From a virus (lineage: Duplodnaviria; Heunggongvirae; Uroviricota; Caudoviricetes), in IMG/VR virus record IMGVR_UViG_2660237933_000004: 40,475 bases of DNA; one strand, 5' to 3'. A program made the position numbers and the translations under genes. Under the pieces are notes generated by a model that was not told where the DNA came from, ran no database searches, and saw only the letters and a list, made by a program, of their open reading frames with translations. This document shows, one piece after another, positions 5,757 to 40,475 of this stretch. Each line of letters starts with the position of its first letter. Position 1 is the first letter of the stretch.

Positions 5757-7087
5757 TGCACTGGCACCTTCAGAGGGATCACCGGCACAAAGCCGGGATG
5801 CGTAATGGCATTACGCCGGATAATGTCCGCGTCACGCGCCGCGTTATCAAACCAGGTCGCCGCCAGCACCAGCGCGGGTAAGACCTCATCCGGCGTGCGC
5901 CGAATGATCCGTGCAGACTGTTCAAGGCGCGTGTTGATATCCGCATTCAGATCTGCTTTCACCCGGCGCAGTGCCAGAAACAGCGCATCACTGGTTGTAC
6001 GGGACAACTCCTTATCAATTGCCGTATTCAGTGTGTCGCGAATGTCAGTCAGCTCTTCCCACGTTGGCAGGTCAACCGTGTTTTTCACCGCCGGTGCATT
6101 GTTCAGTGCCGGATGCGTGACAGAAGGCCAGCCAGTGCTCTGCGCGGGTGTTGTTGCCTGCCCCACTGCGGAATTCTGCATCACCTCGGAAGTTGTTGGC
6201 GCAGGCAATCGGGTGACGGCATACGCCGCTTCGCTGATTGCGGTCGTACGAAGGGTGCTGGCAACCACGTTACGCTGCTGCGTCGCCGTGGCGGTGGTTT
6301 TACTGTCCGTTTTCCAGACGCCGCGCGGTTGCAGATCGCTGCCGAGGCTGACACCGGAAAGCGTTTTGATCATGGTGACCAGGTCGCTGGCGTTACCATA
6401 AAGGCGTTTCCCGGTACGCCACATTTTCTGCACCTGCTCAACGAAATTTTTGCCTGACGATGGCGGCGGCAGAAGTACCGAGATATCCCCCTGCAACAGC
6501 CTGGCGGCATCCGATACGGCAGAATCCACCACTTTCATCGCATCAGAAACATACCCCAGCATTATGCTGGCATTATCGATAACGTCGTTCTGCACGAAAT
6601 CCGCCACACCATCGATACTGAAACCGCTGAAGCTGTCACTGATGCAGTCATCCAGTGCAGAACAGGATGACATCAGCGTCTGCGCCGTCGCCGCACCTGA
6701 TGTGGGGTAAGAGAGTTCTCCTGCTTCGACAAACTTCAGGTCAAAGCGGACAATACGCCCTTCACTTTTCGATGTGCTGACCCGAACTTCCCCGTCAACA
6801 CAGACTTTCAGCTCACCATATGTCGGGTGGACAAGCGTGCCGGGACCGGGTTTATTCAGCGCTTCAATCAGGCGATCGCGCTGGTCAAAGCAGTCATCTC
6901 CCACCACATAAGCTGTGATGGACGGGCGGAAAGTGACTTTTCCCAGATCTTCGGTATAGGGCTTGTCGCGGTTCGGGTATTCATGTGTTTCCACACGGCG
7001 ACCGGTTCCCGCACTTTCTTCTTCAACCTTAAACGGCACACCTCGAAATGACGCATCCTGAAGCCTGTCTTTCCACGTCATATACAC
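5753..7087 (-). CDS. Tail protein (Mu gpN DNA circularization protein-like)
   Basis: 444 aa; N-terminal region looked Mu N-like from memory; downstream of tape measure. Confidence 0.5.
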   Translation of the reverse strand: MYMTWKDRLQDASFRGVPFKVEEESAGTGRRVETHEYPNRDKPYTEDLGKVTFRPSITAYVVGDDCFDQRDRLIEALNKPGPGTLVHPTYGELKVCVDGEVRVSTSKSEGRIVRFDLKFVEAGELSYPTSGAATAQTLMSSCSALDDCISDSFSGFSIDGVADFVQNDVIDNASIMLGYVSDAMKVVDSAVSDAARLLQGDISVLLPPPSSGKNFVEQVQKMWRTGKRLYGNASDLVTMIKTLSGVSLGSDLQPRGVWKTDSKTTATATQQRNVVASTLRTTAISEAAYAVTRLPAPTTSEVMQNSAVGQATTPAQSTGWPSVTHPALNNAPAVKNTVDLPTWEELTDIRDTLNTAIDKELSRTTSDALFLALRRVKADLNADINTRLEQSARIIRRTPDEVLPALVLAATWFDNAARDADIIRRNAITHPGFVPVIPLKVPVQ

Positions 7088-7090
7088 TCC

Positions 7091-7125
7091 GAAAATAAAA
7101 AAGCCACCTATTAGAAGGTGGCCTT
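7091..7125 (-). terminator. Intrinsic terminator after the moron gene
   Basis: Minus-strand hairpin (GCCACC / GGTGGC stem, 8-nt loop) followed by TTTTTTATTTT, 20 bp after the stop of the 7143-7673 gene. Confidence 0.5.
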
Positions 7126-7142
7126 GTAATGAATTTTATTAA

Positions 7143-7673
7143 TTAGCGAGTCAGAAACAACGAATCTTTATACTTTTGCTGTTGTTCATTTAAATACTTA
7201 GCTGTTTCATCGCTGGCAAATGGAAATATTACCGTATTTTTAGGCATGGTAATTTCTTTTTTGTCCAGCGTCAGAGTAAACATAGGAACATACTGAGCAG
7301 AGTAACGCACCGCAGAAACGAGCTCTAGTTTAGACTCTTCAATAACACTTAAATTATCCAGGCTAACTTTCTCTTCATCTTTTTTCTTTGACGCATTTAA
7401 AGTTTTTATTACTTTATTTAATTTCTCCTGAAAATCCTCCTTAAAGTTTTCAGGATTGCCGTCGACAACAAGAATCTGTTCACCCTGATTATCTGGAAAA
7501 ATAATCTTTGCACTTATCAATTTATTTTCTTTATAAACATCACCAAGTTTTATGGCTCCTCCAGATAACTGAATAATATGTTCATCTTTAAAGGAGATGT
7601 TGCCAGAGATTATGAGAGATGAAAAAATAGCCGCTGCTCCAAGAATTACACTTGCTGTGATATAGCCTTTCAT
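7143..7673 (-). CDS. Hypothetical membrane-anchored moron protein
   Basis: 176 aa; N-terminal hydrophobic helix (VILGAAAIFSSLIIS) then Lys/Glu-rich soluble domain; markedly AT-rich versus flanking tail genes; own promoter-like sequence and terminator. Confidence 0.6.
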   Translation of the reverse strand: MKGYITASVILGAAAIFSSLIISGNISFKDEHIIQLSGGAIKLGDVYKENKLISAKIIFPDNQGEQILVVDGNPENFKEDFQEKLNKVIKTLNASKKKDEEKVSLDNLSVIEESKLELVSAVRYSAQYVPMFTLTLDKKEITMPKNTVIFPFASDETAKYLNEQQQKYKDSLFLTR

Positions 7674-7764
7674 TTTTCGCCTATTAACATTTTTCTAAAT
7701 GTGCATTAATTCTATCACTCTATTTATGACTTACAACCAGCAATACATGTGAGGGGAATCCTGG

Positions 7765-9597
7765 CTACCAAAATCGGGTATAGCCAACATCGTGATTTAT
7801 ATCAATGCCACTGGAGCGTGTTTCCGTAACCCGCATACCTGGTGGCATATTTATAAATGATACCTTGATCTCACCATCAACTTTTGGCGCGGTAGCTTTA
7901 TTAATCATGAAGGGATTCGGGCCTGTGGCATCGGAGGCGTTGTTTGCCTGAGCCGGATCCACCGCCGGATAAGGAGTGTATCCCCGTGCCGGTATTCCCG
8001 TCCCATAAGCATCATAAGCACCCGCGCCCCACTGCGCAGAGTTAATGGCATCGACCGTGTCACCGGAACTGTCGGTAAACCACTCAATAATTGGCTTCAG
8101 CTTGTCCCACATATCCTGAAACCACTTAACAACCGGCCCCCAGTTATTGATCACCATCCCCAGCGGCGACCAGGCAAAAACTTTCTTAAGGAGTTCCCGG
8201 CCAGCCTCAAAATAAGGACCAATGGTTTCCCAGAGCTTCTTGAAATAAGGTCCGACAACATCCCAGTTAGTGATAATTAATCCCGCAGCCAGGGCTATCG
8301 CCGTCGCAATCATGCCAATCGGCGTCATCGACATGATCCTGCTGACAATGCTGATGGCACTGCCCACGCCCATCAATCCCAGTTTCAGAATCGCAAGACC
8401 GGCAGCAAGCCCGACGACGCCGCGAATAACCCGGGGATTTTCATCCGCAAACTTCGTGAATTTTTCCCCTAACTCCCCCAGCCATTGCGTGATATTTTTG
8501 GCGTCACCAGAAAATGCGCCGCCAATAGCCGCAAGGCCGTTAGTTGCGGTCCCCGTCATTGCCTCCCACAGGTTGGACAGCGTACCAAGCTGGGCCTGAA
8601 CACGTTTATTCAGGCTGGCCTGTTTATTCATCTTCTGCTGGATCTGATCGTAGCCATCCTTTCCTTTATCGATTAGTGCATTGACCACCTGAAGGGTTTC
8701 GGCATCATCACCAAATATTGCCTTAAGTACACCTGTTCGCTTAACGTCGGTCAGTTTTCGCAGCTTTGCCAGTTGCCTGAACATGTTATCAAGACCGCCA
8801 AAACTCCCTTTGCCGTCAGTAAAATCGAGCTTTACTCCGAGTTTCTGGCGGGCCATGATTTTATTGACGTCCCTGATTTTCTTAACGCTTAATCCGGACT
8901 GGATAACTTTTCGCAGGGCATTACCTGCCGACTCCCCGTTCATCCCCATCTGATCCATCATGACGCTGATGGGGGCAAGGCTCTGTGCAGCCTGAAGACC
9001 GTCCTTGTTCACCATCTTCAGAACAGAACTGGTTTTAGTGAAAAAGGACAACATGTTGGTATCGTCAACGCCCAGATAAAACGCCTTCTGGATAGTGTCG
9101 AACAGCCCCATCATGTCTTCTGACGCCGTTCCGGTAGCATCCTGCATCTTTGCGGCAAACTCGGCAGCCGCTTCCGGTGTTTTTTTCAGTTGTACCGCAA
9201 GATAAGCTGTCGCTTTACCCACACCGCCCAGAATGTTTTCTGCCGGGATCCCCTGACGCACCAGCATCTGCATCATGTTCTGGAAATCAGCCGTTGTACC
9301 GGGTAGCTGGTTACCCAGACCAATAGCCAGTTTATTGATGTCCTGAAAGCGCTTTCCGACCTCACCGTTCGCATCCATCATGGCAACTTTCAGCCCGGTG
9401 GCGGCATTTTCCTGATCGGCATAAGATTTCAGGGAAAGCGTCAGACCCGCAGCCAGTCCGCCACCAAGCGCCAGCCCACCCTGTGACGCTTCTTCAGCCT
9501 GGCGTTTAAATCCCCGGATTTTCTTTTGCATTTTCGACAGCGCGGGAGAAAGCCTGTCGACACCGGTGATCAACGCCTTAAGCTCAAATTCAGCCAT
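7765..9597 (-). CDS. Tail tape measure protein
   Basis: 610 aa with Gly/Ala-rich and hydrophobic segments; follows the frameshifted chaperone pair. Confidence 0.8.
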   Translation of the reverse strand: MAEFELKALITGVDRLSPALSKMQKKIRGFKRQAEEASQGGLALGGGLAAGLTLSLKSYADQENAATGLKVAMMDANGEVGKRFQDINKLAIGLGNQLPGTTADFQNMMQMLVRQGIPAENILGGVGKATAYLAVQLKKTPEAAAEFAAKMQDATGTASEDMMGLFDTIQKAFYLGVDDTNMLSFFTKTSSVLKMVNKDGLQAAQSLAPISVMMDQMGMNGESAGNALRKVIQSGLSVKKIRDVNKIMARQKLGVKLDFTDGKGSFGGLDNMFRQLAKLRKLTDVKRTGVLKAIFGDDAETLQVVNALIDKGKDGYDQIQQKMNKQASLNKRVQAQLGTLSNLWEAMTGTATNGLAAIGGAFSGDAKNITQWLGELGEKFTKFADENPRVIRGVVGLAAGLAILKLGLMGVGSAISIVSRIMSMTPIGMIATAIALAAGLIITNWDVVGPYFKKLWETIGPYFEAGRELLKKVFAWSPLGMVINNWGPVVKWFQDMWDKLKPIIEWFTDSSGDTVDAINSAQWGAGAYDAYGTGIPARGYTPYPAVDPAQANNASDATGPNPFMINKATAPKVDGEIKVSFINMPPGMRVTETRSSGIDINHDVGYTRFW

Positions 9598-12022: not shown

Positions 12023-12583
12023 TCAGGAAGGAAGGGTTATTTCGGTGTGATGTTCGATGTCGCCGTCAGGCCCGTTACCGGGCTCGAGATAATCAACATC
12101 AATCGCCAGCGTTTGCAGTTCATCCAGACTGTTCAGATCATCCTGCTGGCGGGTATCGTCTTCAGTCAGCTCGCTGATGACCGAAAAATCGAACTGATAA
12201 ATCAGCTCATGACGATTCAGATCCAGCAGCGTGCCGCCGTCATAGGTAATCGGGTTACCGCACGCCTCCGGGTTCCAGCCCAGCAGAGCCTTAAAGAGCA
12301 TCTGCCGGACATCGTCCACCACATCATACGAGGCAAACTGACCGCGCTCATCACGCCCGTTACTCAGTATGACAACCACGGAGAAACCCTCTTTCAGCTC
12401 CTGCCAGTAGTCGGTCTGGCTTTTGTTTTCTCCCGGAGAATCATCACCCGGTACAACATATGCCGCCGGGAGTCTCAGCTTTCCGACCTCCGGCAGATTT
12501 TTGAACTGGGCCGCGCCTGCAACCCGGTTTTCAAAATACGGACAGCGGGCACGCAGTGCAGCAATAACAGGCGTCAGTTTCAT
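12023..12583 (-). CDS. Virion structural protein (tail completion/Gp37-like)
   Basis: 186 aa ORF between head-tail joining genes and sheath. Confidence 0.4.
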   Translation of the reverse strand: MKLTPVIAALRARCPYFENRVAGAAQFKNLPEVGKLRLPAAYVVPGDDSPGENKSQTDYWQELKEGFSVVVILSNGRDERGQFASYDVVDDVRQMLFKALLGWNPEACGNPITYDGGTLLDLNRHELIYQFDFSVISELTEDDTRQQDDLNSLDELQTLAIDVDYLEPGNGPDGDIEHHTEITLPS

Positions 12584-13086
12584 CTGTGTCGTCGCTCCGG
12601 CTTCAGTGATTTACGCAATTCCCGCGCCAGAAAATAGCGTGTCCAGCTGCGGTTCTTTTCAAGCGTTTCCACCATGAAGTTATTACGTGGAGCCAGTCGC
12701 CAGCCGCTGCCACCGGATGCACCACGATGATGGCTGCGACGACGCTTTGCCCCTCGCCTCACGCCATAGAACAAAAAAGCCGGATAAAAATCACCGGTGA
12801 TACGGCGGTTTCCCTCTCCATTACGCTGGTTAGGGGCTATACGTGCCATAAAACCAGGGCGATGTTTACTGGCTCTGGGTACCATGTAACCAATCGAACG
12901 AGCCAGGCGTCCGGTCTGATAACCGGGGTTTTCACCCGGTGCCGACCGCGCACGGCGCATCACCAGCCGACGGGCATCACGCATATGACGCTGACCAATC
13001 GTGACAAACGCCCGCCGGACACGGGCGCGGTTAAAGCGCATCTCCGCGGGCTGCTGAAAATCAACGTGCAAAAAGGAAGTCGTCAT
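12580..13086 (-). CDS. HK97 gp10-like virion morphogenesis protein
   Basis: 168 aa, Arg-rich; position after head-tail adaptor. Confidence 0.4.
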   Translation of the reverse strand: MTTSFLHVDFQQPAEMRFNRARVRRAFVTIGQRHMRDARRLVMRRARSAPGENPGYQTGRLARSIGYMVPRASKHRPGFMARIAPNQRNGEGNRRITGDFYPAFLFYGVRRGAKRRRSHHRGASGGSGWRLAPRNNFMVETLEKNRSWTRYFLARELRKSLKPERRHR

Positions 13087-13471
13087 TGTTGCCTCCGTGA
13101 CTCTGCCTACATTCGCCCAGCTCCGTACACTCCAGCAGCAGAAAGCGCCGCGCCCCGTTCAGATCGCGCTGACGTTTCACCCGGTACACACTGTCACCGC
13201 AGACCACCTCATAATCAGCGGTGATCCCCCGGCGGTAACGAATGGTGATGTAATGGGTGATGGCGTCCCCGGTCTGCGCGGTTTCCTGCCAGGTGGTGGC
13301 ACTGGTCTGGATAACCTTCGCCCATGTCCGGAACGTAACCGGGTATTGAGGCTCCACGCCAAAGTTATCCGCGGGCATATCCACCCGCAGGCGGATCAGG
13401 ACGCGTTTATTCAGTTCACCGGGGTCCGGCAGAATGTAGGTTGCGCTGGTCTGCGCCTGACGAATTTTCAT
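13061..13471 (-). CDS. Head-tail adaptor / head closure protein
   Basis: 136 aa; position after connector gene. Confidence 0.45.
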   Translation of the reverse strand: MKIRQAQTSATYILPDPGELNKRVLIRLRVDMPADNFGVEPQYPVTFRTWAKVIQTSATTWQETAQTGDAITHYITIRYRRGITADYEVVCGDSVYRVKRQRDLNGARRFLLLECTELGECRQSHGGNNDDFLFAR

Positions 13472-22657: not shown

Positions 22658-23461
22658 ATGACAGAAAAAGATAACATTGGTAAGTTAATTTGGCATATTG
22701 CTTGCGATGAATCTGGCATTGATGGACAACGTTTCTACGGCTTTGGCAGTCTGTGGATGAAGTACCAACGCCGTGGGGATTTCTGTCAACTAATCAGAGA
22801 ACTACGCGGAAAACATGGTTTTTTTGAAGAAATAAAATGGCAAAAAGCCCATTCAAAAAGATACTCTGAATTTTATCTTGAGCTGATCGACTTATTCTTT
22901 AGAGTTCCTTGGCTAGCTTTTCATTGTATCGTGGTTGAAAAATCAATAGTAAATAAGGCATTTCATAATGGAGATTATGACCTGGCAAGGAGAAAGCACT
23001 TCACAAATCTCATTACCACAAAAATTAGCTCTGTAATTTCTGCACACCCTGAAAGAGACAGTTACTTCAGGATTGAAGTTGATCCTATCGCATCTCGTTA
23101 TAAAAAGGCTGATGAAGAACTAAATGTTATTGCCAATAACATATTGAATAGAAAATTTGGTCGTAAAGGGATAATCAGCAGTGTAGTGACAAAAGACTCT
23201 AAAGCATCTGAAAACATTCAGCTAGCCGATTTTTTCTTAGGTGCGGTTATGTGCGCATATCAAGGAAAAGCTTCATCTGAAGCCAAAATAAGAGTATCAA
23301 ACTATGTTGCTTCATATTTAGGCTGGGATCACTTGCAATATGATACATGGCACACTGAGAGAAAATTTAATATCTGGTATTTTTATGATAAAACTCGAGG
23401 GCCACGAGATATAGAAACTCAAAATGTTAGCTTGAAGTATCCACTTCCCAAAAAGAAATAG
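22658..23461 (+). CDS. DUF3800-like protein (function unknown), opposite-strand moron between Q and holin
   Basis: 267 aa; N-terminal DESG and C-terminal QLAD motifs as I recall for DUF3800; AT-rich; AT-rich upstream region. Confidence 0.6.
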   Translation: MTEKDNIGKLIWHIACDESGIDGQRFYGFGSLWMKYQRRGDFCQLIRELRGKHGFFEEIKWQKAHSKRYSEFYLELIDLFFRVPWLAFHCIVVEKSIVNKAFHNGDYDLARRKHFTNLITTKISSVISAHPERDSYFRIEVDPIASRYKKADEELNVIANNILNRKFGRKGIISSVVTKDSKASENIQLADFFLGAVMCAYQGKASSEAKIRVSNYVASYLGWDHLQYDTWHTERKFNIWYFYDKTRGPRDIETQNVSLKYPLPKKK

Positions 23462-25155: not shown

Positions 25156-25318
25156 GATTCCTCCTTGCTGCCAGTCGCAACCATTTTTTATCAACCAGGC
25201 TGGCGGTATATCCGAGCAGAGTTGGTATTTCGGATGGCTTCAGCTCAGGTTTACGCTTACGACGATTTGGTACTTTGTAGATGTGTCCGTTCATGACACG
25301 AATAAGCGGTGTAGCCAT
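25148..25318 (-). CDS. ninE: NinE
   Basis: 56 aa ([56 protein letters not shown]) by manual translation. Confidence 0.7.
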   Translation of the reverse strand: MATPLIRVMNGHIYKVPNRRKRKPELKPSEIPTLLGYTASLVDKKWLRLAARRNHG

Positions 25319-25773
25319 TACGCCTCCTGCTTGTCGCGCAGCAGCTGGAACTCGCAGCTCTGCGGAATAGTCAGGTGGCAGCCAATATTCATCGCCCAGG
25401 CTTCAACCTTACACAGGAAGACATACATCTCTCCGGTATCGAGATCGGAGGTATGACGTAATGACTGAATGGTGGTGATTTCACCGGTTACGACATCAAC
25501 CAGTTCTTTGGTTTCATAACCGAGATAAGTGTGTTTGAGAGCATCTTTTACCCAATCTGGAGTGGCGAACGTTTTACCCCTGCTGATGAGGTATTCACTG
25601 ATTTCGCTGTACCACATGTGGCTGAGTGCATTCTGGGAAAGACTGCGTCTCTCGCGCCACGGTTTAAGCACCATGCGAAAGCATTTGCCGTCTTCCAGAT
25701 AAGTCTGGATCTGCTGACCGACAGCGGTGAAGTTACCGCGATGTAATTTGATGCCATCTTGTGGGAGGTTCAC
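25318..25773 (-). CDS. ybcN: YbcN-like protein
   Basis: 151 aa; matches DLP12 YbcN from memory. Confidence 0.65.
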
Positions 25774-26274
25774 GCTTCACCTCCGCAGAGATCAAACGCT
25801 GGATGCAAGACATCGCAGGTGCATTTCTGCATCTGTGACAAGGTAAGGAGTTCAGATTGTGGTCGCATTTAAGTCCCCTTAAATGCGCAGAAGTCACCGG
25901 AGTTGTTCAAGCTCCGGTGACATTATTATGGAAGGTTGATACTAAAAAATCAAAAATTGAATATCATTGGCGATAGTCTAGCTTGTGATATCCACAAGCT
26001 ACTTCAATGAAGCGACGAGTAACATTTTGTGTCATCCATGTTTTTTCAGTTAAGTGCCACACCCAGTTCAAAATTTGCTGATGGGTTGAACATGTACTAA
26101 GCGGGATGTTGTATTCATAAGCAACATTGATTCCGCAAAATCGGTGTCGTGTCATGACCGATTCACGTTGACCTGCGCCCTGTTGAGTGCCTGGGGATAT
26201 TCTTGCTCGATAGTTAATATCATAGTAGTTACTTTACTTTCATACCATAGCACGGTTGAAAAAGTGATTATTAC

Positions 26275-27801
26275 TCAAAAATAAACCTCACCATCAACCA
26301 TATATTTGAGAGTACTTATCGCCTGCTGGGCGGATATTGTTTTCATTAAAGGATAGTGTTTAAAAACAATGCCATTCATAAAATAGATATCACAGGTTTT
26401 ATTATCTGTATTGATTATGATTTTTTCGAATGTTTTATAGGCAAGTGTACGACATAGCTCTCGCCCATTTTTACTGGTTAAGTCAATAGCATGAAAATCA
26501 CCAAGTGAACTCACCGCTTTACTCTTCAAAGTTTTTAATGATACAGAAGCCCTTCGTAATTCCTTATCTAATACTCTGATTTTTTCTGCTATAGCGGTAA
26601 CTTCAGGCGCAACAGATAATGCAGCAATTAAATTATTAATTTTCATCTGGAGCTCAATAATTTTCAACTCTAAAGTTTCATTAGCATCTTTCTTGTTTTC
26701 AACTGGTTGGATTTTACTACAATTAAAAAGCAACTCATTAATGATATTATAATCAACCAAATCTCTCTTTATTGATGGCCTGTCACATCGATGCAGTCTT
26801 CTCATCGGACAAACATAATAGCCATGCAAACTTCCAGATACCGCATGAACAATCATGGTATTACCACAAGCCTCGCACTTCATAACTGTTCGAAGTAGAT
26901 TTATCAACATAGGATTTTTGCTACTATTGCTAATACCAAAAGGTGCCAACCGAATTTCCTGCACAGCGTAAAACAAATCATCTGATATGACTCTGGGATA
27001 ATAGCCAGCGATTTCACTTATTCCTTTACCTCTTGCACGATATGAAGGTACGCATATACCTATCAGAGCTTTATTCGCTAATAATTTTTCAATTACAGAA
27101 GGCCCCCATGCACTTTCTTTGCCTGAGAAATTTTTTACAGCATGATCATTTAAATACTTGGCTATTGCATTCAATGATCGCCTTTCCATCCTGAGTTTAA
27201 AAATTAGCTCAATCGTTTTCACCCTGTCGGGGTCTGGAATAAAAGCTGTTCTTTTGTCATCCAATGAGAGCCATCTCGGACAAGACGCCGTCATAATCGT
27301 GCCTGACTCCAGTGCATCCTGCCGTTTTTTCTTCCATGATAATTTAACCCGACTTGACTTTATCTCGCTTTCTTCATTTGCCCTTTGTGCTATAAGTATG
27401 GCTTTTATTAATGAATATGGATCATTCAAAGAGTCAATATTATAGACTGTATTATCGCAAAGAGTTATAACATCAATACCGTGATTCAAAATCAATTTCA
27501 GACGCTCAATCGCTTCACCGACTTTTTCTCTTGAAAGTCTGTCCAAACTTTCAACTAACAATGTAGTTCCTGGCAATATATAACCATGCTCTATAGCATC
27601 TAAAAATTCCGAAAAAGCTCCTGATTGTGCATGCTTTCCTTTGAATGCACTTAATCCTAAATCTTCATATGTTATGGTATCAAGATAATAATCACTATTT
27701 ACCTTTAACCATTCAGCAATAAGTCTTCTCTGTCGGTTTAATGAGTCGCCAGACATCTGACCTGGTGATGAAAATCGCATATATGCTATGGCTTTTTTCA
27801 T
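26275..27801 (-). CDS. ybcK: Large serine recombinase (YbcK-like)
   Basis: 508 aa; N-terminal resolvase motif YMRFSSPGQ...SLNRQ, Cys-rich zinc-ribbon region (CEACG...CPMRRLHRC); AT-rich. Confidence 0.8.
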   Translation of the reverse strand: MKKAIAYMRFSSPGQMSGDSLNRQRRLIAEWLKVNSDYYLDTITYEDLGLSAFKGKHAQSGAFSEFLDAIEHGYILPGTTLLVESLDRLSREKVGEAIERLKLILNHGIDVITLCDNTVYNIDSLNDPYSLIKAILIAQRANEESEIKSSRVKLSWKKKRQDALESGTIMTASCPRWLSLDDKRTAFIPDPDRVKTIELIFKLRMERRSLNAIAKYLNDHAVKNFSGKESAWGPSVIEKLLANKALIGICVPSYRARGKGISEIAGYYPRVISDDLFYAVQEIRLAPFGISNSSKNPMLINLLRTVMKCEACGNTMIVHAVSGSLHGYYVCPMRRLHRCDRPSIKRDLVDYNIINELLFNCSKIQPVENKKDANETLELKIIELQMKINNLIAALSVAPEVTAIAEKIRVLDKELRRASVSLKTLKSKAVSSLGDFHAIDLTSKNGRELCRTLAYKTFEKIIINTDNKTCDIYFMNGIVFKHYPLMKTISAQQAISTLKYMVDGEVYF

Positions 27802-28057
27802 GGTGACACCTGCTAACGTATGCTTTTATAAACCTTAGTGGTGAGATATAATTTTTGTTTAATTTTTATTTAAAAAGACAATTAAGGTCACATTATCTTG
27901 AATATACAACAATAATCGTATTGCAATTTTCTTACGCCATAATCTTGAAAGCACAAAAGAATACATAAAAAAATAAAGACATTAACAAAAAGCATAAAAC
28001 GAGGCTCATATAAATATAAGAGCCTCCATATTTTAGTCGTTTAGAAACAAATTATTT

Positions 28058-28390
28058 TTAATGTGGTGTGCTTCGTGACAATAAATTAATAACCAACACT
28101 CCGGCACAAATCAACATCATGCCTATAATGGCTGGCATGTCCAGCCGTTGGCCGAAAAATCCCCATGACAGTAAGCTAATCAGGACAATACCGACTCCTG
28201 ACCAGATAGCATAAGCAATCCCTGTAGGAATATAAGCCAGCGTCTGCGCTAATAACCAGAATGATGCACAATAACAAATAATTGTACCAACAGATGGCCA
28301 TAACCGTGTAAAACCTTCTGAAAACTTCATTAAGGTTGTACCAATGACCTCTGCAAGTATTGCACCACCAAGATAAATATAAGGGTTCAT
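28058..28390 (-). CDS. emrE: Small multidrug resistance efflux protein EmrE
   Basis: 110 aa from MNPYIYLGGAILAEVIGTTLMKFSEGF; four TM helices; matches E. coli EmrE from memory. Confidence 0.85.
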   Translation of the reverse strand: MNPYIYLGGAILAEVIGTTLMKFSEGFTRLWPSVGTIICYCASFWLLAQTLAYIPTGIAYAIWSGVGIVLISLLSWGFFGQRLDMPAIIGMMLICAGVLVINLLSRSTPH

Positions 28391-28457
28391 AGCATATTCT
28401 TTCCTGTTCAAACTGGAGAGAATTGTACTACAGTTTGAACTCAACTCACCTGTTTCA

Positions 28458-28760
28458 TCATTGTGTACCCATTGATGTTCTTTTATATACCCTCAATACC
28501 CGTTTCATCGCGGCACTCTGGCGACACTCCTTAAAAATCAGATTCGTGCTCACCTTTCCTTCCCGTTCTTCTCTGGTAGCGAACCGGTAATACACCGTTC
28601 GCCAGACCTTACCATCAACGACCAGGATTCCTGCCCGCGCCATTTTAGCCGCAGCCTGATTTATGCTGGTTACGGTTGCGCCTGTTACCGCGGCAACGTC
28701 CTGCGCACAGAAGTTCTTATGAGTCCCCAGGTAATGAATAATTGCCTCTTTGCCTGTCAT
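28458..28760 (-). CDS. ren: Ren
   Basis: 100 aa, near-identical to lambda Ren through the first ~90 residues. Confidence 0.75.
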   Translation of the reverse strand: MTGKEAIIHYLGTHKNFCAQDVAAVTGATVTSINQAAAKMARAGILVVDGKVWRTVYYRFATREEREGKVSTNLIFKECRQSAAMKRVLRVYKRTSMGTQ

Positions 28761-29458
28761 ACACTTGCTCCTTTCAGTCCGAACTTAGCTTTAATTTCTG
28801 CGATCTTCGCCAGAGCCTGTGCACGATTTAGAGGTCTACCGCCCATAACAGGAAGTTGTTTTACTGGTTCAGGTATCGTCTCACCACGGTTAATTCGCGC
28901 TGTCATACAGGTCAGTTCATCGGCAGCCTTGCGCCGTAATTCCGCGTCAGTCAGCGCATTGGCCCGCATGTTCTGGTACAAGTTGGTAACCAACCAGTAA
29001 TGCGCGTTCGATTTCCACGGATAAGACTCTGCATCCGGATACAGGCCACGCTTCCGGCAATACTCGTAAACCATATCAACCAGCTCGCTGGCGTTTGGCA
29101 GTCCGGCAATAACGGATGCTTCTTCACGGCACCATGCAACAAACTGCCCGGGTGATGGCAGAAATGGTCGATTCTGCCGACGGGCTACGCGCATTCCTGC
29201 GTTAACCTGTTCCATTGTGGTGATCCCGTTTTCCCGGAAAGCCAGCACCCACTGGCGGCGGATTTCGTTCAGTTCGTTCTGGTCCCGGTTAGCCAGGCTC
29301 GCCGGGAAAGTTGCCAGTAACTGGCTGAACACACCATTGATGATCTGCGCTACCTGTTGTACCTGCGGCTTTTCGTCGTACTGTTCCGGCATGTTGTTGG
29401 CGATCCGACGCATCTGCTCACGGTCAAAGTTAACCATCTGTGCGGCGATGTTTTTCAT
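28757..29458 (-). CDS. P: Replication protein P (DnaB helicase loader)
   Basis: 233 aa, near-identical to lambda P. Confidence 0.9.
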   Translation of the reverse strand: MKNIAAQMVNFDREQMRRIANNMPEQYDEKPQVQQVAQIINGVFSQLLATFPASLANRDQNELNEIRRQWVLAFRENGITTMEQVNAGMRVARRQNRPFLPSPGQFVAWCREEASVIAGLPNASELVDMVYEYCRKRGLYPDAESYPWKSNAHYWLVTNLYQNMRANALTDAELRRKAADELTCMTARINRGETIPEPVKQLPVMGGRPLNRAQALAKIAEIKAKFGLKGASV

Positions 29459-30384
29459 AAATCCACCCCGTAAATCCAGTCAGTGTTTGTCAGGTCGAGT
29501 TTTGGTTTGCTGGCTGTCACGCCTGCCTGTTGCTTGTTACGGTTGATTTCGAGCTGGGTCCACTTGTCGCGGAGTTTGGCCGGACTCAGCACGTTACCGG
29601 ACCAGAAGTTGTCCTGGCATGCCCAGCGGAACAGCACGCACATGTCGCGGTGGTTACGTCCGTCACGTTCACGCATCAGGCGGATATCGTTAGCCCACCC
29701 TGCAAAATTCGGTTTTCTGGCTGATGGCGCGATGGTCTTCACCATGTCAAACATCCACTCTGCGGCGGTCAGGTCTTCTGCTGTCCCCCACTTGCTGCCG
29801 CTCTGAATTGCAGCATCTGGTTTCACCACAGGAAGATCGTTTTCTGGTTGGTCAGAGGATTCGCCAGAATTCTCGGACGAAAAAGGTTTTATATTGTCTT
29901 TTGTTAGTTTGTCTTTTGTGTTTACCTGATTCGGGTAAACGCCTTTACCTGATTTGGGTAAACTTTTCTTACCTGATTCAGGTAAATTTACCTCTTTCAG
30001 GTAAACTTTATTTTTCTTACCTGATTCGGGTAATGTTGACCATTCACTGACCACATTATTAATACCGATATTCCGCCCGCTCTGAATCAAAATCCCACGC
30101 TTTACCAGAACACTTTTTGCAGCAGAACACTTGTGCGGCAATATCCCGGTCAACTCGGAAAGTTGCTCGTTGCTCACCCAATCCAGTTTTTTATTAAAGC
30201 CATATGTTTTGCGCATGACAGCCAGGAAGACCAGAAGCTGGTGCTGTGTTAATCCGGCCAGCATCACAGCTTCCAGCAACTCATTTGCAATGCGCGTATA
30301 ACCATCATCGAGATCTGCCACGCGCGGCTCCTTTTGTGCCGCATCCGGCACTGGAAAATTGAATATCTCAGCAGTGTTTGCCAT
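29455..30384 (-). CDS. O: Replication initiator O
   Basis: Lambda O-like N-terminus (VADLDDGY), iterons inside the gene, and O C-terminus; start chosen at MANTAEIF with GGGAGGA RBS, upstream of which the ORF track extends. Confidence 0.85.
   Translation of the reverse strand: MANTAEIFNFPVPDAAQKEPRVADLDDGYTRIANELLEAVMLAGLTQHQLLVFLAVMRKTYGFNKKLDWVSNEQLSELTGILPHKCSAAKSVLVKRGILIQSGRNIGINNVVSEWSTLPESGKKNKVYLKEVNLPESGKKSLPKSGKGVYPNQVNTKDKLTKDNIKPFSSENSGESSDQPENDLPVVKPDAAIQSGSKWGTAEDLTAAEWMFDMVKTIAPSARKPNFAGWANDIRLMRERDGRNHRDMCVLFRWACQDNFWSGNVLSPAKLRDKWTQLEINRNKQQAGVTASKPKLDLTNTDWIYGVDL
29923..30033. repeat. Replication origin iterons (O-binding sites), five 18-bp direct repeats
   Basis: TACCTGATTCGGGTAAAC-like units at 29923, 29946, 29969, 29987, 30016 within the O coding region. 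Confidence 0.7.
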
Positions 30385-30470
30385 AATTCCTCCCGCAATG
30401 AGTGTGTTACGATTTGCACCTGAAAGTCGGTTCTGTTCCCGCAGACCGACTTTCGCCATTTTTGAACCTG

Positions 30471-31010
30471 TCATATTGCCCCCAGCATGGTGGTGACCAT
30501 CGCCATCAATGGACCAGCCAGATCCGGGTCCACTCGAAACATCGACACAATGCCTTCACTCATCTCCTTCAGTTTCTGGTGGCGTGGTGCGTTGAGAATG
30601 ACAGCCTGTTTTGCCTCACTGAGTTCCTTTTCCATTTCAGCCAACCTAGCCATAAAGCTATCCTGCTCAACCAGGTAACCGCGATATTCCAGCGGTAGTA
30701 CCGCCAGAATTGCCGGGGTCAGTTCACGCACGTTATTTCGGTATTTTTCAGAATCGAATTTGTTATCGAGGAAGCGGAACAGCTTCTGGCGTGCACGGCT
30801 GACATCATCAGGGAAATCGATGGTGCCGCCGCCCTGCTCCCGATACTCATTCACAATGAGTGCGGCAACAACATCCTGATTATCTGCAGCCGACCAGGCG
30901 CGGACGGCATCACGGATTTTTTCGTGGCCTGGAGCTTGTTTTGTTTGAGAACGATTTATCACCGCAGTCGGGCTAAATCCGCTAGTCTGTTGGTATGTAA
31001 GTGGTTGCAT
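30471..31010 (-). CDS. YdaT-like protein in cII position
   Basis: 179 aa; EYREQGGG and TPAILAVLP segments resemble Rac YdaT from memory; follows a Cro/YdaS-type regulator. Confidence 0.45.
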   Translation of the reverse strand: MQPLTYQQTSGFSPTAVINRSQTKQAPGHEKIRDAVRAWSAADNQDVVAALIVNEYREQGGGTIDFPDDVSRARQKLFRFLDNKFDSEKYRNNVRELTPAILAVLPLEYRGYLVEQDSFMARLAEMEKELSEAKQAVILNAPRHQKLKEMSEGIVSMFRVDPDLAGPLMAMVTTMLGAI

Positions 31011-32183: not shown

Positions 32184-33029
32184 ATGAAGCTTAACTTTTA
32201 TGCCGTATACATTCAAAATACTAGCTCTCTGAAAAAACAACCTATAGATTTATTGTCATTTCTGACAGAGCAGGTAATAAACGCTAAGAATCATGCTCAG
32301 CAGATTGAAGACTACTATGTTTTTGCACATCATATAATTAATGATAGTTTTATCCTGACAAAAACATTTGATTCAGAACTAGTTAAAAAAATCAATAGAA
32401 AAACACTTTCGGTTGATGAAATAAGAAATGCGCTTAGTTCAGATGAGTCATTAGGATTCCCATCATTTTTATTAATAAGAAAAAATATTATCGGATATGC
32501 AAATACATTATTCGGCCCAAAAACTCGTGATCTTGCAGCTTACCTAAAAGGAAAGGGAGCAATACCTGATGGATACTCACTATTCATAGAACCTTTGATG
32601 AGAGATATAACAAAGGATGATGCTTTAAGCATGCAGTTTATAGGAAGAACAACGGTAAGGGTTGAAAATGGGTCAAAACTTCTCAGCCCCCTACTTAGAG
32701 TGCTTGGTGCACAAGCAGTTGACGAAGAGCTCTTAGAAGGACTGGAAATAACCGTGAAGCCTAAACGTTTACGAAATATAAAATCTGTTGCCAAAGGGAT
32801 TATTAGCAATGTGGATGAACAACATGAGAGCATTCACCTGAAGGGTAAAGAACAAGCTGCAGATATTCTTACAGAATATTATCTTTCTGACAAAGGCCAC
32901 ATTGGAGCAAATATCTATAAATCATCGAATGAAGACATAGCATCCGAAATGTCAACTTGCTATCTCAGGATGAAATTGATTATAATGGAAAGTTATAATA
33001 GAACATTTGGAGATGAGTTACCACTATAA
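32184..33029 (+). CDS. rexA: RexA-like abortive-infection protein
   Basis: 281 aa directly downstream of cI; conserved segments ESLGFPSF, IEPLMR..TKDD, FIGRTTVRVE, ILTEYYLSDKGH match lambda RexA from memory; AT-rich. Confidence 0.7.
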   Translation: MKLNFYAVYIQNTSSLKKQPIDLLSFLTEQVINAKNHAQQIEDYYVFAHHIINDSFILTKTFDSELVKKINRKTLSVDEIRNALSSDESLGFPSFLLIRKNIIGYANTLFGPKTRDLAAYLKGKGAIPDGYSLFIEPLMRDITKDDALSMQFIGRTTVRVENGSKLLSPLLRVLGAQAVDEELLEGLEITVKPKRLRNIKSVAKGIISNVDEQHESIHLKGKEQAADILTEYYLSDKGHIGANIYKSSNEDIASEMSTCYLRMKLIIMESYNRTFGDELPL

Positions 33030-33031
33030 TA

Positions 33032-33487
33032 TTGGGGGGCTATATGAAGTCACGGCACAGGATAGCGCCAGCAATAATACTTTTTCTTTTGCCATTCCCA
33101 ATTATTATAAGTGCGTATTATCTAATCCGCCACATGTTTCCGGGTATGGCTTTTAGCGAGCACAGAGATGCGCTGGGTGGCGCTATTGCCGCTTATTCTG
33201 GTACTACAATTGCGATACTTATAGCCGCTTTAACATTTCTGATGGGGCTGGGAGGCAGGAATATTCGCAAATTGAAAACATATGGCTATATGACATCAAT
33301 CATAATCATGTATGGATTAACTTTTTGCGAGCTAGGAGTACTTTTCTTTAATGGCTTGTTTTTACTTGCAACAAGTAAAAATCCTATACTAATGCTACCA
33401 TCAATCGCTATTGGTTTATCAGGTACGTCACTAATCCATATTGGCATGCTCCTGATGCAATTACTTAATCTGTCAAAACATAAGTAA
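33032..33487 (+). CDS. rexB: RexB-like membrane protein
   Basis: 151 aa, four hydrophobic helices; FSEHRDALG...TIAILIAALTFL...YGYMTS closely matches lambda RexB from memory. Confidence 0.7.
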   Translation: MGGYMKSRHRIAPAIILFLLPFPIIISAYYLIRHMFPGMAFSEHRDALGGAIAAYSGTTIAILIAALTFLMGLGGRNIRKLKTYGYMTSIIIMYGLTFCELGVLFFNGLFLLATSKNPILMLPSIAIGLSGTSLIHIGMLLMQLLNLSKHK

Positions 33488-36011: not shown

Positions 36012-36166
36012 AGCATCCTCGCGATAATATCCGGGTAGGCGCGATCACTTACATCTACTCCGTTACAAAGCGAGGCTGGGTATTTCCCGGCCTTTCTGTT
36101 ATCAGAAATCCACTGAAAGCACAGCGGCTGGCTGAGGAGATAAATAATAAACGGGGGGCTGTATGA
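36008..36166 (+). CDS. Hypothetical small protein (52 aa), translationally coupled
   Basis: ATG overlaps exo stop (ATGA); stop overlaps the methyltransferase start; manual translation [19 protein letters not shown]... Confidence 0.3.
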
Positions 36167-36720
36167 CTGATTTCACCGGAAGCAATACTCCTGCCGAACA
36201 TCGCGACAGCTGGCGCACACCACCAGAGATTTTTGCTGCGCTTAATGCAGAGTTCGTTTTTCAACTTGATGCTGCAGCCAGCGAAAAAAACCGACTATGT
36301 CGGCTTTTTATCTCACAGGAGCAGAACACATTAACCACTTCATGGCCTGAAGCAATGGGATATGCCTCTGGTTATGTCTGGTTGAATCCACCATACAGCA
36401 ATATTTCCCCTTTTGTGAAAAAGGCAGCCACTGAAAACAAATTCAGTAGTGTGGGATGTGTAATGTTATTGCCTGCTGACACATCTGTCGGATGGTTTCA
36501 TGAAGCGATACAAACCGCCAGTGAGGTCAGATTCATCACGGCAGGACGACTGGCATTTATTAACCCACTCACCGGGAAACCCGTCAGTGGAAATAATAAA
36601 GGCTCGATGCTCATTATCTGGCACCCATACCCCCGTACACACTGCCACTTTACGACCGTTGATCGTGGAGAGTTGATGGCGTTCGGCTCAAGGATTCTTG
36701 CCCGTCGGGAGGCTGCATGA
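36163..36720 (+). CDS. Phage N6-adenine DNA methyltransferase (Dam-like, orphan)
   Basis: 185 aa; NPPY catalytic motif (WLNPPYSNISPF) and WRTPPEIFAALNAEF N-terminal region typical of the phage Dam family. Confidence 0.8.
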   Translation: MTDFTGSNTPAEHRDSWRTPPEIFAALNAEFVFQLDAAASEKNRLCRLFISQEQNTLTTSWPEAMGYASGYVWLNPPYSNISPFVKKAATENKFSSVGCVMLLPADTSVGWFHEAIQTASEVRFITAGRLAFINPLTGKPVSGNNKGSMLIIWHPYPRTHCHFTTVDRGELMAFGSRILARREAA

Positions 36721-37655: not shown

Positions 37656-37977
37656 GGCCTGTCAGTTTCTCAAGATATCCAGACCTACCGCTACCAACTG
37701 GATACGAACAGGCCGCCTACAGGCAACACGCAAAGACCCCACTAAACTAAAATCTCCTTACCTCACAACACGACAAGCCTGCATTGCGGCGCTTCAGTCT
37801 CCGCTGCATACTGTCCAGGTGAGCGCGGGTGATGGCATAACAGAGGAAAGAAAATGTCACTCTTCCGCAGAGGTGAAATATGGTACGCCAGTTTCACATT
37901 GCCGAACGGTAAAAGATTTAAACAGTCTCTTGGAACAAAGGACAAAAGGCAGGCGACAGAGCTCCATGACAAGCTAA
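37627..37977 (+). CDS. xis: Excisionase (P22-type)
   Basis: 116 aa from [31 protein letters not shown] (AlpA/Xis-type HTH); immediately upstream of and overlapping int. Confidence 0.7.
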
Positions 37978-39017
37978 AGGCTGAAGCATGGCGGGTCAGC
38001 AAACTTGGTGAAATACCTGATATGACGTTCGAGGAGGCGTGTATCAGGTGGCTCGAAGAGAAAGCACATAAAAAATCACTGGACGATGACAAAAGCCGGA
38101 TCGGATTCTGGCTTCAACATTTCGCAGGGATGCAACTAAGAGACATCACTGAATCAAAAATTTATTCAGCAATGCAGAAAATGACGAACCGGCGTCATGA
38201 GGAAAACTGGAAACTCAGGGCAGAAGCATGCAGAAAAAAAGGGAAACCTGTTCCAGAATACACGCCAAAACCAGCGTCCGTTGCAACGAAGGCTACGCAT
38301 CTTTCATTTATAAAGGCCCTGCTAAGAGCCGCAGAGCGTGAATGGAAAATGCTGGATAAGGCACCAATTATTAAAGTGCCTCAACCAAAGAATAAACGGA
38401 TCCGCTGGCTGGAGCCCCATGAAGCACAAAGGCTGATTGATGAATGTCCGGAGCCATTAAAGTCTGTTGTTGAATTTGCACTGGCAACAGGCTTAAGACG
38501 CTCGAACATCATCAACCTTGAATGGCAACAAATAGATATGCAGCGCCGGGTGGCATGGATAAACCCGGAAGAGAGTAAATCAAACCGCGCAATTGGCGTT
38601 GCGCTGAATGATACTGCATGTCGCGTATTGAAAAAACAAATCGGGAATCATCACCGTTGGGTATTTGTGTACAAGGAAAGCTGTACCAAACCAGACGGAA
38701 CGAAAGCGCCAACAGTAAGGAAGATGCGGTATGACGCAAACACAGCCTGGAAAGCGGCGCTGAGACGGGCTGGTATTGATGATTTCAGATTTCACGACTT
38801 GAGACACACCTGGGCAAGTTGGCTGGTTCAAGCCGGAGTCCCGTTGTCAGTGTTACAGGAAATGGGAGGCTGGGAGTCTATCGAAATGGTTCGTCGATAT
38901 GCTCACCTTGCACCTAATCACCTTACCGAACACGCACGGCAAATAGACTCGATCCTGAACCCATCGGTCCCAAATTTGTCCCAGTCAAAAAATAAGGAAG
39001 GTACTAATGATGTGTAA
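37854..39017 (+). CDS. int: Tyrosine integrase (P22/SfV-type, thrW-specific)
   Basis: 387 aa; N-terminus [31 protein letters not shown] and catalytic region [10 protein letters not shown]...VRRYAHL; ends 14 bp from the tRNA-Thr 3' end. Confidence 0.9.
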
Positions 39018-39031
39018 CTTATTGATTTAAA

Positions 39032-39107
39032 TGGTGCCGATAATAGGAGTCGAACCTACGACCTTCGCATTACGAATGCGCTGCTCTACCAACTGAGCTA
39101 TATCGGC
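39032..39107 (-). tRNA. thrW: tRNA-Thr (anticodon CGU), thrW-type
   Basis: Minus-strand 76 nt GCCGATATAGCTCAGTTGGTAGAGCAGCGCATTCGTAATGCGAAGGTCGTAGGTTCGACTCCTATTATCGGCACCA; cloverleaf with CGT anticodon; 3' CCA. Confidence 0.9.
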
Positions 39108-39221
39108 CCTGAAAGGACATGTTCACGAACGTGAATCACGGTGGACAAGGTTAAAACTAACCGGGCGATGCGTCAATGGCCTTGTGAATCAAATGGCTAC
39201 TTTTGCATCACCCGGTTTTAT

Positions 39222-40475
39222 TTACGCACGAATGGTGTAATCACCAATGCCGATCCACTTGTAAGTGGTCAGTGCTTCCAGCCCCATTGGGCCACGCGCG
39301 TGGAGTTTTTGTGTGCTTACCGCCACTTCCGCACCCAGTCCAAACTGGCCGCCGTCGGTAAAACGCGTAGAGGCGTTAACGTAAACAGCGGACGAATCCA
39401 CTTCGTTAACAAAACGCTGGGCGTTGCGCATATCGCGGGTCAGGATCGCATCGGAGTGTTGTGTGCCGTGTTCACGAATATGGGCGATGGCATCGTCAAG
39501 ATCGCTGACGATTTTGACGTTCAAATCTAATGACAGAAACTCATCGTCATACTCTTCGGCTTTAACCGCCACCACCTTCGCGGGGCCTGCCTGCAACTGT
39601 GTCAGCGCAGCTGCATCTGCGTGTAATGTCACGCCGCTTTCCGCCATTTGTTTGCTTAATACGGGCAGGAAGCTATCGGCGATGTTTTTATTCACCAGCA
39701 ACGTTTCTACCGTATTACATGTGCTCGGACGCTGGGTTTTCGCGTTGACGATCACTTTTAATGCTTCAGCAATCTCTGCACTTTCATCAACGTAAATATG
39801 GCATACGCCTATACCACCAGTGATCACCGGGATCGTCGACTGTTCGCGGCACAGTTTATGCAAACCAGCCCCACCGCGCGGGATCAGCATGTCGATGTAT
39901 TTATCCATACGCAGCATTTCACTGACCAGCGCACGGTCAGGATTATCAATCGCCTGCACGGCACCCGCCGGTAAGCCACAGGATTTCAGGGCGTCCTGAA
40001 TCACCGCCACCGTTGCAGCGTTAGTGCGACAGGTTTCTTTGCCACCACGCAGGATCACCGCATTACCGGTTTTCAGGCACAGCGAAGCGACATCAACCGT
40101 CACGTTCGGGCGCGCTTCATAAATCACGCCAATCACCCCCAGCGGCACGCGACGACGCTCAAGACGCAGGCCGCTGTCCAGCACGCCGCCATCAATCACC
40201 TGCCCCACCGGATCGGCGAGGTTACACACCTGGCGCACATCATCGGCAATGCCTTTCAACCGTGCGGGCGTCAGTGCCAGACGGTCAAGCATCGCTTCGC
40301 TAAGGCCATTGGCACGCGCGTCAGCAACATCCTGGGCGTTAGCGTTGAGGATGATTTCGCTTTGTGCTTCCAGTTCATCGGCGATTTTTTCCAGCACGCG
40401 ATTTTTTTCGCGGCTGGAGAGTTGCGCTAATTTATACGAGGCTTGCTTCGCGGCAATGCCCATTTGTTCCAGCAT
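39222..40475 (-). CDS. proA: Gamma-glutamyl phosphate reductase ProA
   Basis: 417 aa, full-length match to E. coli ProA; start codon at the last base of the window. Confidence 0.95.

Follow-up and report, generated by a model that had tools for sequence, protein, structure and literature searches.

The stretch of DNA analyzed here, referred to as the window, is the whole 40,475-nucleotide virus record IMGVR_UViG_2660237933_000004 of IMG/VR. The feature under study is an AT-rich block between the replication gene ren and the nin-operon promoter that carries emrE, which encodes a small multidrug resistance (SMR) efflux transporter, and ybcK, which encodes a large serine recombinase (LSR). Every gene from O through Q is on the minus strand. 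In the direction of transcription, O (29455-30474), P (28757-29458) and the gene for the 100-amino-acid (aa) Ren protein (28458-28760), with which the conserved part of the replication module ends, precede emrE (28058-28390), a leader region (27802-28000), ybcK (26275-27801), and a decayed cargo-cassette site (25955-26274). The nin module then begins with its first conserved genes, a 32-aa ylcH/orf33-like open reading frame (ORF; 25770-25868) and a ybcN/ninB-like gene (25318-25773), and continues through ninE, ybcO, rusA, and a phage-82-type Q.

The emrE-ybcK block and its borders

The block is set apart by its base composition. The GC content of 25955-28457 is 0.363, the lowest among all 2.5-kb intervals of the window (mean 0.50, standard deviation 0.056), and values drop to 0.30-0.40 from ∼25950 to ∼28450, with emrE at 0.41 and ybcK at 0.36 as compared to 0.50 for the whole window. 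Comparison with relatives places the island at ∼25955 to ∼28485. Island-free relatives (O55:H7 DEC5D and phage 82) match the window up to 25930-25954 and resume from 28486, homology to such phages stopping at ∼28486, within the final codons of ren. The original prediction, which was made from the sequence alone, had described a markedly AT-rich cargo block between ybcN and ren at 25774-28457. Both the block and its composition are borne out, but the left end lies at ∼25955 and not at 25774. That prediction had also raised the prospect of boundaries that follow ordinary lambdoid gene order without a compositional break; the borders do coincide with standard joints of a recurrent moron slot, while the break in composition exists.

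The region is not new, but is the already catalogued DLP12-type emrE-ybcK accessory block of Escherichia coli lambdoid phages. The 3.5 kb from ybcN to ren were found at 99.5% identity in E. coli 158274-3, and 1357 of the 5426 complete E. coli genomes carry the block at ≥95% identity over ≥80% of its extent. It is also present in 12 phage records (Perceval, 4A7, Lambda_4C10, Turner, 1W, 3W, D2, and the PhiR series), identities ranging from 95 to 99.5% across the genomes and phage records. RefSeq and phage annotations of the matching loci name emrE, ylcJ, and ybcK or "large serine recombinase", and ybcK is carried by ∼26% of complete E. coli genomes (∼1400).

emrE and the leader of ybcK

The 110-aa product of emrE is an SMR multidrug efflux transporter (PF00893, E = 2.7e-35, residues 3-94). 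Its sequence, MNPYIYLGGAILAEV..., carries Glu14, and near-identical loci are annotated as emrE; the domain match and Glu14 together confirm the transporter that the original prediction had placed in the block. A 128-aa version with a TTG start, given in the ORF list, was rejected as an over-extension, the protein having 110 aa from its ATG. The region upstream of the gene (28391-28457, minus strand) is a predicted promoter or leader and contains a 13-nt inverted repeat at 28406-28440. After the gene, an intrinsic-terminator-like hairpin can be read from the sequence at 28001-28027 (minus strand) as GGAGGCTC-N11-GAGCCTCC followed by the T-rich tail GTTTTATGCTTTTT; owing to its long loop, it was missed by the hairpin scan. 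emrE alone (28050-28467, including ∼80 bp upstream and 8 bp downstream) is found in thousands of genomes, and in Nissle 1917 a remnant emrE-ybcL-ybcM-nmpC without ybcK adjoins fliE. Deviant GC content, a hairpin terminator, solitary occurrence, and a slot with alternative fillers all mark emrE as a moron, although its promoter is only predicted. With its own upstream region and terminator, emrE would be expressible from the prophage, and the host would gain an SMR efflux pump by lysogenic conversion.

The ybcK leader (minus strand) has a GC content of 0.27 and holds a ylcJ-like ORF that is frameshifted at the T-run 27970-27976 (T7 here, T6 in relatives). ylcJ is annotated in relatives as a 49-aa protein between emrE and ybcK, and RefSeq flags a frameshift in other strains too. 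Its start overlaps the emrE terminator hairpin, and the annotation of ylcJ as a gene may be spurious. The K-12 counterpart of this leader is untranslated and acts as a Rho/NusG-dependent terminator, tybcK; in rho and nusG mutants, ybcK mRNA is higher (PMC4150792).

ybcK encodes an intact large serine recombinase

YbcK is a 508-aa protein with Resolvase, Recombinase, and Zn_ribbon_recom domains. Its catalytic domain matches PF00239 (E = 5.3e-19, residues 4-161), with further matches to PF07508 (E = 2.3e-14) and PF13408 (E = 8.2e-8), and these three LSR domains bear out the earlier description of the protein as a 508-aa LSR. Disruption of the ORF, which the original prediction had named as a sign against its view, was not found; the ybcK ORF is intact. 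In 17 YbcK homologs from eight genera, residues R9, S11, D87, R88, and R91 are invariant, as are the zinc-ribbon cysteines C309, C312, C331, and C339. An AlphaFold2 model (predicted local distance difference test score of 79) contains coiled-coil helices at residues ∼346-430 and then a C-terminal beta domain. While PDB sequence searches with YbcK, either as a single sequence or as a profile, yielded no serine recombinase match, the fold search succeeded: Foldseek returned full-length matches to serine integrase-att complexes (9dxd and 9dxh), PhiC31, and Bxb1, with E values of 1e-18 to 1e-14, the alignments spanning 527-613 columns against the complete chains of 9dxd, 9dxh, 9tep, and 9iu2.

The gene is intact in 86 of 87 E. 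coli-type loci, and its 40 nucleotide alleles have a ratio of nonsynonymous to synonymous polymorphism (pN/pS) of 0.073. Because of these two values, ybcK is judged to be under strong purifying selection and not a relic. YbcK matches no defense system in PADLOC, and no divergent ybcK-like gene at 60-90% identity was found in E. coli genomes. No YbcK function is reported in the papers searched, where the gene is named only in lists, a Rho study, a sabinene-tolerance study, and a study in which ybcK was among 16 recombinase genes knocked out without consequence for an unrelated excision (PMC5426353). The original prediction had likewise left the role of the recombinase open.

YbcK as compared to the integrase and the tail-fiber invertase

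The window prophage is located at thrW, where a tyrosine integrase gene (37854-39017) converges on tRNA-Thr(CGT) (39032-39107). The host side, 39032-40475, contains thrW and then a 417-aa aldehyde-dehydrogenase-family (proA-like) gene. Other prophages with ybcK are found at icd (Xuzhou21) and argU (DLP12-type), a tyrosine integrase being present at every junction, and Perceval has a tyrosine Int and Xis besides ybcK. A role for YbcK as the primary prophage integrase was rejected, as ybcK is an internal gene in E. coli and the thrW, icd, and argU sites each come with a tyrosine integrase. Because three sites are used, each with its own junction tyrosine integrase, YbcK does not determine where these prophages integrate.

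A role as a tail-fiber invertase of the Pin/Gin/Cin/Hin type was also rejected, given the 508 aa and LSR domains of YbcK as compared to the ∼190 aa of the small invertases. At the left end of the window, a 25-nt inverted repeat (39-63 and 1772-1796, 96% complementary) spans 1.7 kb of tail-fiber and assembly genes, which form a Pin-type invertible segment. The gene pinE, which adjoins avs2 in the closest relative, falls beyond the left end of the window. With LSR domains in YbcK and crossover sites that belong to a pinE-type system, the earlier statement that the recombinase is not the tail-fiber invertase holds.

Variable cassettes between ybcK and the nin promoter

The left border of the cargo slot is marked by the promoter of the ylcH-ybcN-ninE-ybcO-rusA-Q operon (25925-25953, minus strand), a predicted sigma-70-type promoter of the form TTGATT-17-CATAAT that is kept beside every cassette type. 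Two adjacent hairpins follow in the leader of the operon (25893-25921 and 25866-25890, minus strand). The first varies solely by C-to-U substitutions in its 5′ arm, which keep G·U pairs, whereas the second, which covers the ATG of the 32-aa ORF, has three co-varying stem versions and a constant GGGA loop. The pair resembles a regulatory leader RNA for the nin operon; no known RNA family in Rfam matched 25300-28800. The interval 25774-25954, with the promoter, hairpins, and 32-aa ORF, is also found in phage 82 and in island-free phages, and the phage 82 record annotates putative -35/-10 elements and a "possible regulator-binding site" there. The two hairpins expected at ∼25866-25922 are present, but as part of this conserved leader and not of the island. 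Similarly, what had been described as ∼500 bp of AT-rich non-coding DNA, the 501 bp separating ybcN from ybcK, is the conserved operon leader plus a decayed cassette, both of only mildly low GC content (leader 0.45, remnant 0.40).

The cassette site was compared across 80 IMG/VR loci of E. coli type. The order ren-emrE-ylcJ-ybcK is collinear in all 80 and is broken only by insertion sequence (IS) elements. Directly after ybcK, most loci have a 105-109-aa P22_AR_C-domain gene (Pfam E = 1.1e-15), and at least eight alternative cassettes follow the two genes: a 118-aa gene, a 260-aa gene, a 314-aa bstA gene, a 168-aa gene, an 83-aa gene, an alpha/beta hydrolase gene, ybcL-ybcM, and a pair of 90-aa and 105-aa genes. 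IS-bearing derivatives of these cassettes also occur. The product of the 314-aa gene was identified as the abortive-infection protein BstA (PADLOC E = 3.6e-121; type C loci, e.g., L103 at ∼12146-13090), and because some relatives carry bstA there, the slot after ybcK is a defense-gene hot spot. Cassette breakpoints fall at +9, ∼+212, and ∼+415-428 after the ybcK stop codon and, on the promoter side, at 25930, 25940, and 25954, around the -35 element of the nin promoter.

As compared to the type H loci L168 and L177, the site in the window (minus strand) shows two deletions, of 228 bp and 661 bp, the 228-bp one having taken the P22_AR_C gene region. The 63-aa ORF that is found there (25964-26155, minus strand; phrog_2559) begins with eight residues that arose by deletion and continues as the C-terminal 55 residues encoded by a 105-aa gene; it is evidently a fusion product although PHROGs lists it as family 2559.

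YbcK homologs in other genera

YbcK homologs of ∼509 aa and 40-61% identity were found in Atlantibacter, Yersinia, Pantoea, Erwinia, Kluyvera, Citrobacter, Ewingella, and others. Their contexts were read within 10-kb flanks, and the gene was solitary in every context examined. Some homologs occupy the nin region of lambdoid prophages, as in Atlantibacter RC6, Pantoea dispersa, Candidatus Pantoea alvi, and several IMG/VR contigs. In Ca. P. alvi (L030, 9055-12859), the homolog is inverted and lies between a full P-like gene and a frameshifted partial P (residues 77-223). It adjoins a triplet of helix-turn-helix, thymidylate-kinase-like, and 306-aa genes that looks like a defense system. Other homologs lie at prophage junctions as the last gene after the tail-fiber and assembly genes, either converging on ssrA (Atlantibacter) or located before an aldehyde dehydrogenase gene (Ewingella) or lepA (Erwinia), and the Yersinia homolog is found between a lambda-like tail-fiber region and a P2-like remnant. 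Plasmid-borne copies, found in Pantoea and Duffyella, reside among metabolic or defense-like genes without nearby phage genes. No close YbcK homolog was found among INPHARED phages outside E. coli. Both phage positions, the nin region and the end of the tail-fiber genes, are cargo hot spots, and in the closest relative of the window phage the tail-fiber end carries avs2 and pinE. Defense-like cargo beside the homologs comprises NACHT with RelA/SpoT, DUF3800 with methylase/HNH, and the thymidylate-kinase-like triplet.

Search for a YbcK substrate or partner

Repeat searches of 25300-28800 and of the whole window gave chance-level matches only, such as I1 (28 nt, 71%) and the 12-mer CTTTTATA[T/A]ACC at 27823 and 28480. 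None flank ybcK or the block, and the search for repeats at the island borders that the original prediction had proposed was thus negative. A dyad scan of 25774-26275, 27802-28058, and 28391-28460 found no site of ≥15/22 positions, a threshold that shuffled sequences reached in 15 of 200 trials, and natural att sites may be too weakly symmetric for such a scan. No inverted or split ybcK arrangement was found among the E. coli matches listed or the 80 viral loci, and among the matches listed ybcK has at most three copies per genome, always in a lambdoid context. Close copies in different contexts (L020/L021 vs L030 at 94%, L017/L018 vs L093, L012 vs L025, and L008 vs L015) have ends at gene boundaries and no inverted termini.

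A small, directionality-factor-like neighbor of the LSR gene that is conserved across genera was also not found; the P22_AR_C gene, a 67-aa ORF of Ewingella, and ylcJ are each limited to one lineage. Upstream of the LSR gene, no motif is shared across genera, and only lineage-specific palindromes were found. In Ewingella (L017/L093), the palindrome TGTTCAC-N4-TGAACA lies ∼70-80 nt upstream of the LSR start, and a small S24-like gene is located just upstream, an arrangement that suggests repressor control in this lineage. The original prediction had seen no obvious cognate site or partner in the window, and a cognate site is indeed not visible there.

A modular cargo slot with a proposed auxiliary recombinase

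We consider it reasonably probable that the block is a modular cargo slot in which YbcK is an active auxiliary recombinase that acts elsewhere. The block is a stack of separately inherited modules in a recurrent slot between ren and the nin promoter, the modules being separable because emrE, ybcK, and the downstream cassette vary independently. In related phages, the slot is filled by a 93-aa gene or by an acyltransferase and a lipoprotein gene. When a synthetic ren/nin-promoter junction was searched against 5426 E. coli genomes, neither a single-piece match nor an empty site was found, and the smallest filler between ren and the nin promoter in these genomes is ∼770 bp. The other low-GC blocks of the window, the DUF3800/PDC-M04A gene and rexA-rexB, are cargo as well. 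The slot resembles the usual moron hot spots that are kept up by homologous exchange in conserved flanks. Within it, the site after ybcK hosts different morons in different phages, bstA among them, and has decayed in this one.

We infer the timing of ybcK expression from the K-12 Rho terminator and the orientation of the pR operon. Because the K-12 leader terminates via Rho, and because the gene is oriented as are O, P, ren, and the nin genes, ybcK would be silent in the lysogen behind its terminator leader and would be read mainly when N-antiterminated pR transcription passes through, as a delayed-early phage gene. YbcK itself is a complete, selected, and presumably active LSR. Its predicted chemistry is that of a dimer bound on each of two 40-50-bp sites; the dimers would synapse as a tetramer, Ser11 would cut four strands, and the subunits would rotate before the strands are religated. 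The role that we favor for it, as a guess, is an auxiliary one of the integrase type, encoded by a gene-sized module acquired from the phage gene pool. YbcK would be at work when the phage infects or is induced, and its target would lie elsewhere, at a secondary attachment site or on another replicon.

Several points weigh against this explanation. The substrate searches gave no candidate, be it repeats flanking ybcK or the block or a dyad of ≥15/22, and in none of the loci inspected was the arrangement inverted or split. The integrase-type role is a guess from family membership, and solitary homologs in several contexts fit a self-propagating or cargo-organizing gene equally well. ybcK may also have a weak promoter of its own, as opposed to the antitermination-only expression proposed above.

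Alternative explanations

YbcK could instead recombine sites in trans, either at other places in the chromosome or within a different prophage, and the rearrangement would benefit the host or prophage. ybcK is intact in the cryptic DLP12 of K-12, BL21, and others, and there are earlier cases of a serine recombinase from one prophage working on the DNA of a different one: PinQ and PinR of Qin and rac invert e14 DNA and block phage adsorption (PMC12529663; bioRxiv 10.1101/2025.03.28.646004). However, these are small invertases with known crossover sites, whereas neither candidate sites nor rearranged alleles were found for YbcK. In K-12, Rho keeps ybcK silent (PMC4150792), and the ybcK knockout was without effect in the single recombination assay that included it (PMC5426353). 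We regard rearrangement in trans as unlikely.

The original prediction had suggested that the recombinase may be a remnant of a nested element. In its full form, emrE-ybcK-cassette, or ybcK plus the cassette, would have been inserted by YbcK, leaving attL and attR at the borders. The foreign composition of the block (GC content of 0.36), the position of the LSR gene near one side of variable cargo, and solitary homologs in unrelated contexts, including plasmids, are what such an element would display, as are Nissle-type remnants in which emrE-ybcL-ybcM lack the 2.1-kb ybcK segment. However, emrE, ybcK, and the cassettes change independently, the borders are those of a generic slot that has other fillers in related phages, and no terminal repeats or dyad sites were found, nor an empty ren/nin-promoter site in the E. 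coli genomes searched. L020/L021 and L030 end at gene-sized joints without inverted ends, and among the matches listed the gene has few copies, always lambdoid. The Nissle 1917 junction is not clean, with 7 bp unaccounted for and further deletions, e.g., from quuD to ybcN; an insertion of ybcK as a single gene was rejected on this comparison, which was read as a deletion. With independent modules, no repeats, no empty site, and ybcK under strong purifying selection, the remnant proposal is not supported, and we regard a nested element as improbable.

It is also improbable, in our view, that the YbcK clade is a solitary LSR gene that spreads gene-sized among phage cargo hot spots and Enterobacterales plasmids and acts on DNA outside its own locus. 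The gene is solitary everywhere it was seen, is strongly selected, and is often near defense-type cargo. Such a recombinase could dock phage or foreign cassettes at secondary sites, could be a single-gene mobile or hot-spot-seeding recombinase, or could be a phage weapon against other replicons.

A very unlikely alternative is that YbcK organizes the hot spot and captures or exchanges the cassettes just downstream of it, as an integron does. At least eight alternative cassettes, including BstA, directly follow ybcK and the P22_AR_C gene, and homologs in other genera lie beside defense-like cargo. However, each side has several breakpoints and no single point, and these fall at the gene end and the nin promoter, as predicted by homologous exchange between conserved flanks. 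No repeated attC-like motif was found at the cassette bounds, the nin promoter being the one recurring boundary, and no cassette was found inverted.

That ybcK is an inactive relic, the decaying leftover of an old integration module, would fit a YbcK with no known function or site and the decay of the adjacent cassette and ylcJ in the window, but is barely credible and already contradicted by the selection data (86/87 intact, pN/pS 0.073), catalytic residues that are invariant across genera, and the presence of ybcK in viable, sequenced phages.

Other features of the window and significance

The closest whole-genome relative, NZ_CP172337.1 (L098), is a 44.8-kb circular sequence that is collinear with the window save for IS2, the immunity-side cargo, and the attachment region. 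It was deposited as a plasmid, yet contains a full phage genome (int, avs2, pinE, tail, head, lysis, nin, emrE-ybcK, and immunity genes), and is probably an excised or circular form of the phage. Further cargo of the window includes an AT-rich DUF3800 gene of 267 aa between Q and the holin/lysis genes (22658-23461, plus strand), which matches the PADLOC candidate defense family PDC-M04A (E = 1.4e-34). Downstream of a cI-like repressor are genes for RexA (281 aa, PADLOC E = 3.5e-115) and RexB (151 aa, E = 2.2e-55) at 32184-33487 (plus strand); NZ_CP172337.1 has a Panacea-domain gene in place of rexA-rexB. The early-left region holds an orphan DNA methyltransferase-like gene of 185 aa (36163-36720, plus strand; PADLOC oMTase, E = 9e-33). 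In the tail module, a low-GC block at 6901-8000 (minimum 0.33) contains a 176-aa ORF (7143-7673, minus strand) and may be another moron.

As a feature, the emrE-ybcK block is ordinary, and it accounts for the multidrug pump EmrE being phage-borne. ybcK, as an orphan LSR gene, is widespread, strongly selected, and present in viable phages. If its sites were found, YbcK would provide a Gram-negative, lambda-compatible serine integrase for the genome-engineering toolbox and would reveal the use of a second, non-integrating recombinase to a temperate phage. With BstA among its cassettes, the slot is also a practical hunting ground for new prophage-borne defense genes.

Comparison with known systems

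DLP12, the cryptic prophage of K-12, contains the same genes in the same order and orientation (renD-emrE-ylcJ-ybcK-ybcL-ybcM-ylcH-ybcN), with 96-97% identity from ren through the end of ybcK, and the same nin module. The two differ in the cassette after ybcK, which is ybcL-ybcM in DLP12 and a deletion remnant of another cassette type in the window. Unlike DLP12, the window prophage is at thrW, has another late region (phage-82-type Q, DUF3800 gene, and Mu-like tail), and looks largely complete. The lambdoid phages Perceval, 4A7, Lambda_4C10, Turner, and the PhiR series share ren-emrE-ybcK-cassette-ybcN at 95-96% identity, and in these phages YbcK is annotated as a large serine recombinase alongside tyrosine Int/Xis. 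They differ from the window in having an alpha/beta hydrolase or other cassettes and other structural modules.

With the phage serine integrases PhiC31, Bxb1, A118/LI, and TP901-1, YbcK shares domain order, the catalytic serine motif, the zinc ribbon, and the coiled coil, but the identity is just 14-19%. Unlike the genes for those integrases, E. coli ybcK has no recognizable adjacent attP and is not at the prophage end, where a tyrosine integrase carries out integration. The LSR transposases TnpX and TndX (of Tn4451 and Tn5397) mobilize a small cargo element whose ends show little if any repeat, and on paper such elements would look like the block described here. As compared to these elements, however, the block shows no sign of element ends, circular forms, or a rise in copy number, and cargo and LSR vary independently.

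The P2/P4 hot spots are fixed cargo slots between conserved genes. Moron and defense hot spots, such as rexAB of lambda and the BstA loci of BTP1-like prophages, likewise consist of a fixed slot with AT-rich, self-contained genes that differ between phages. Where the present slot departs from these hot spots is in its constant recombinase gene, which is retained in ∼1400 E. coli genomes.

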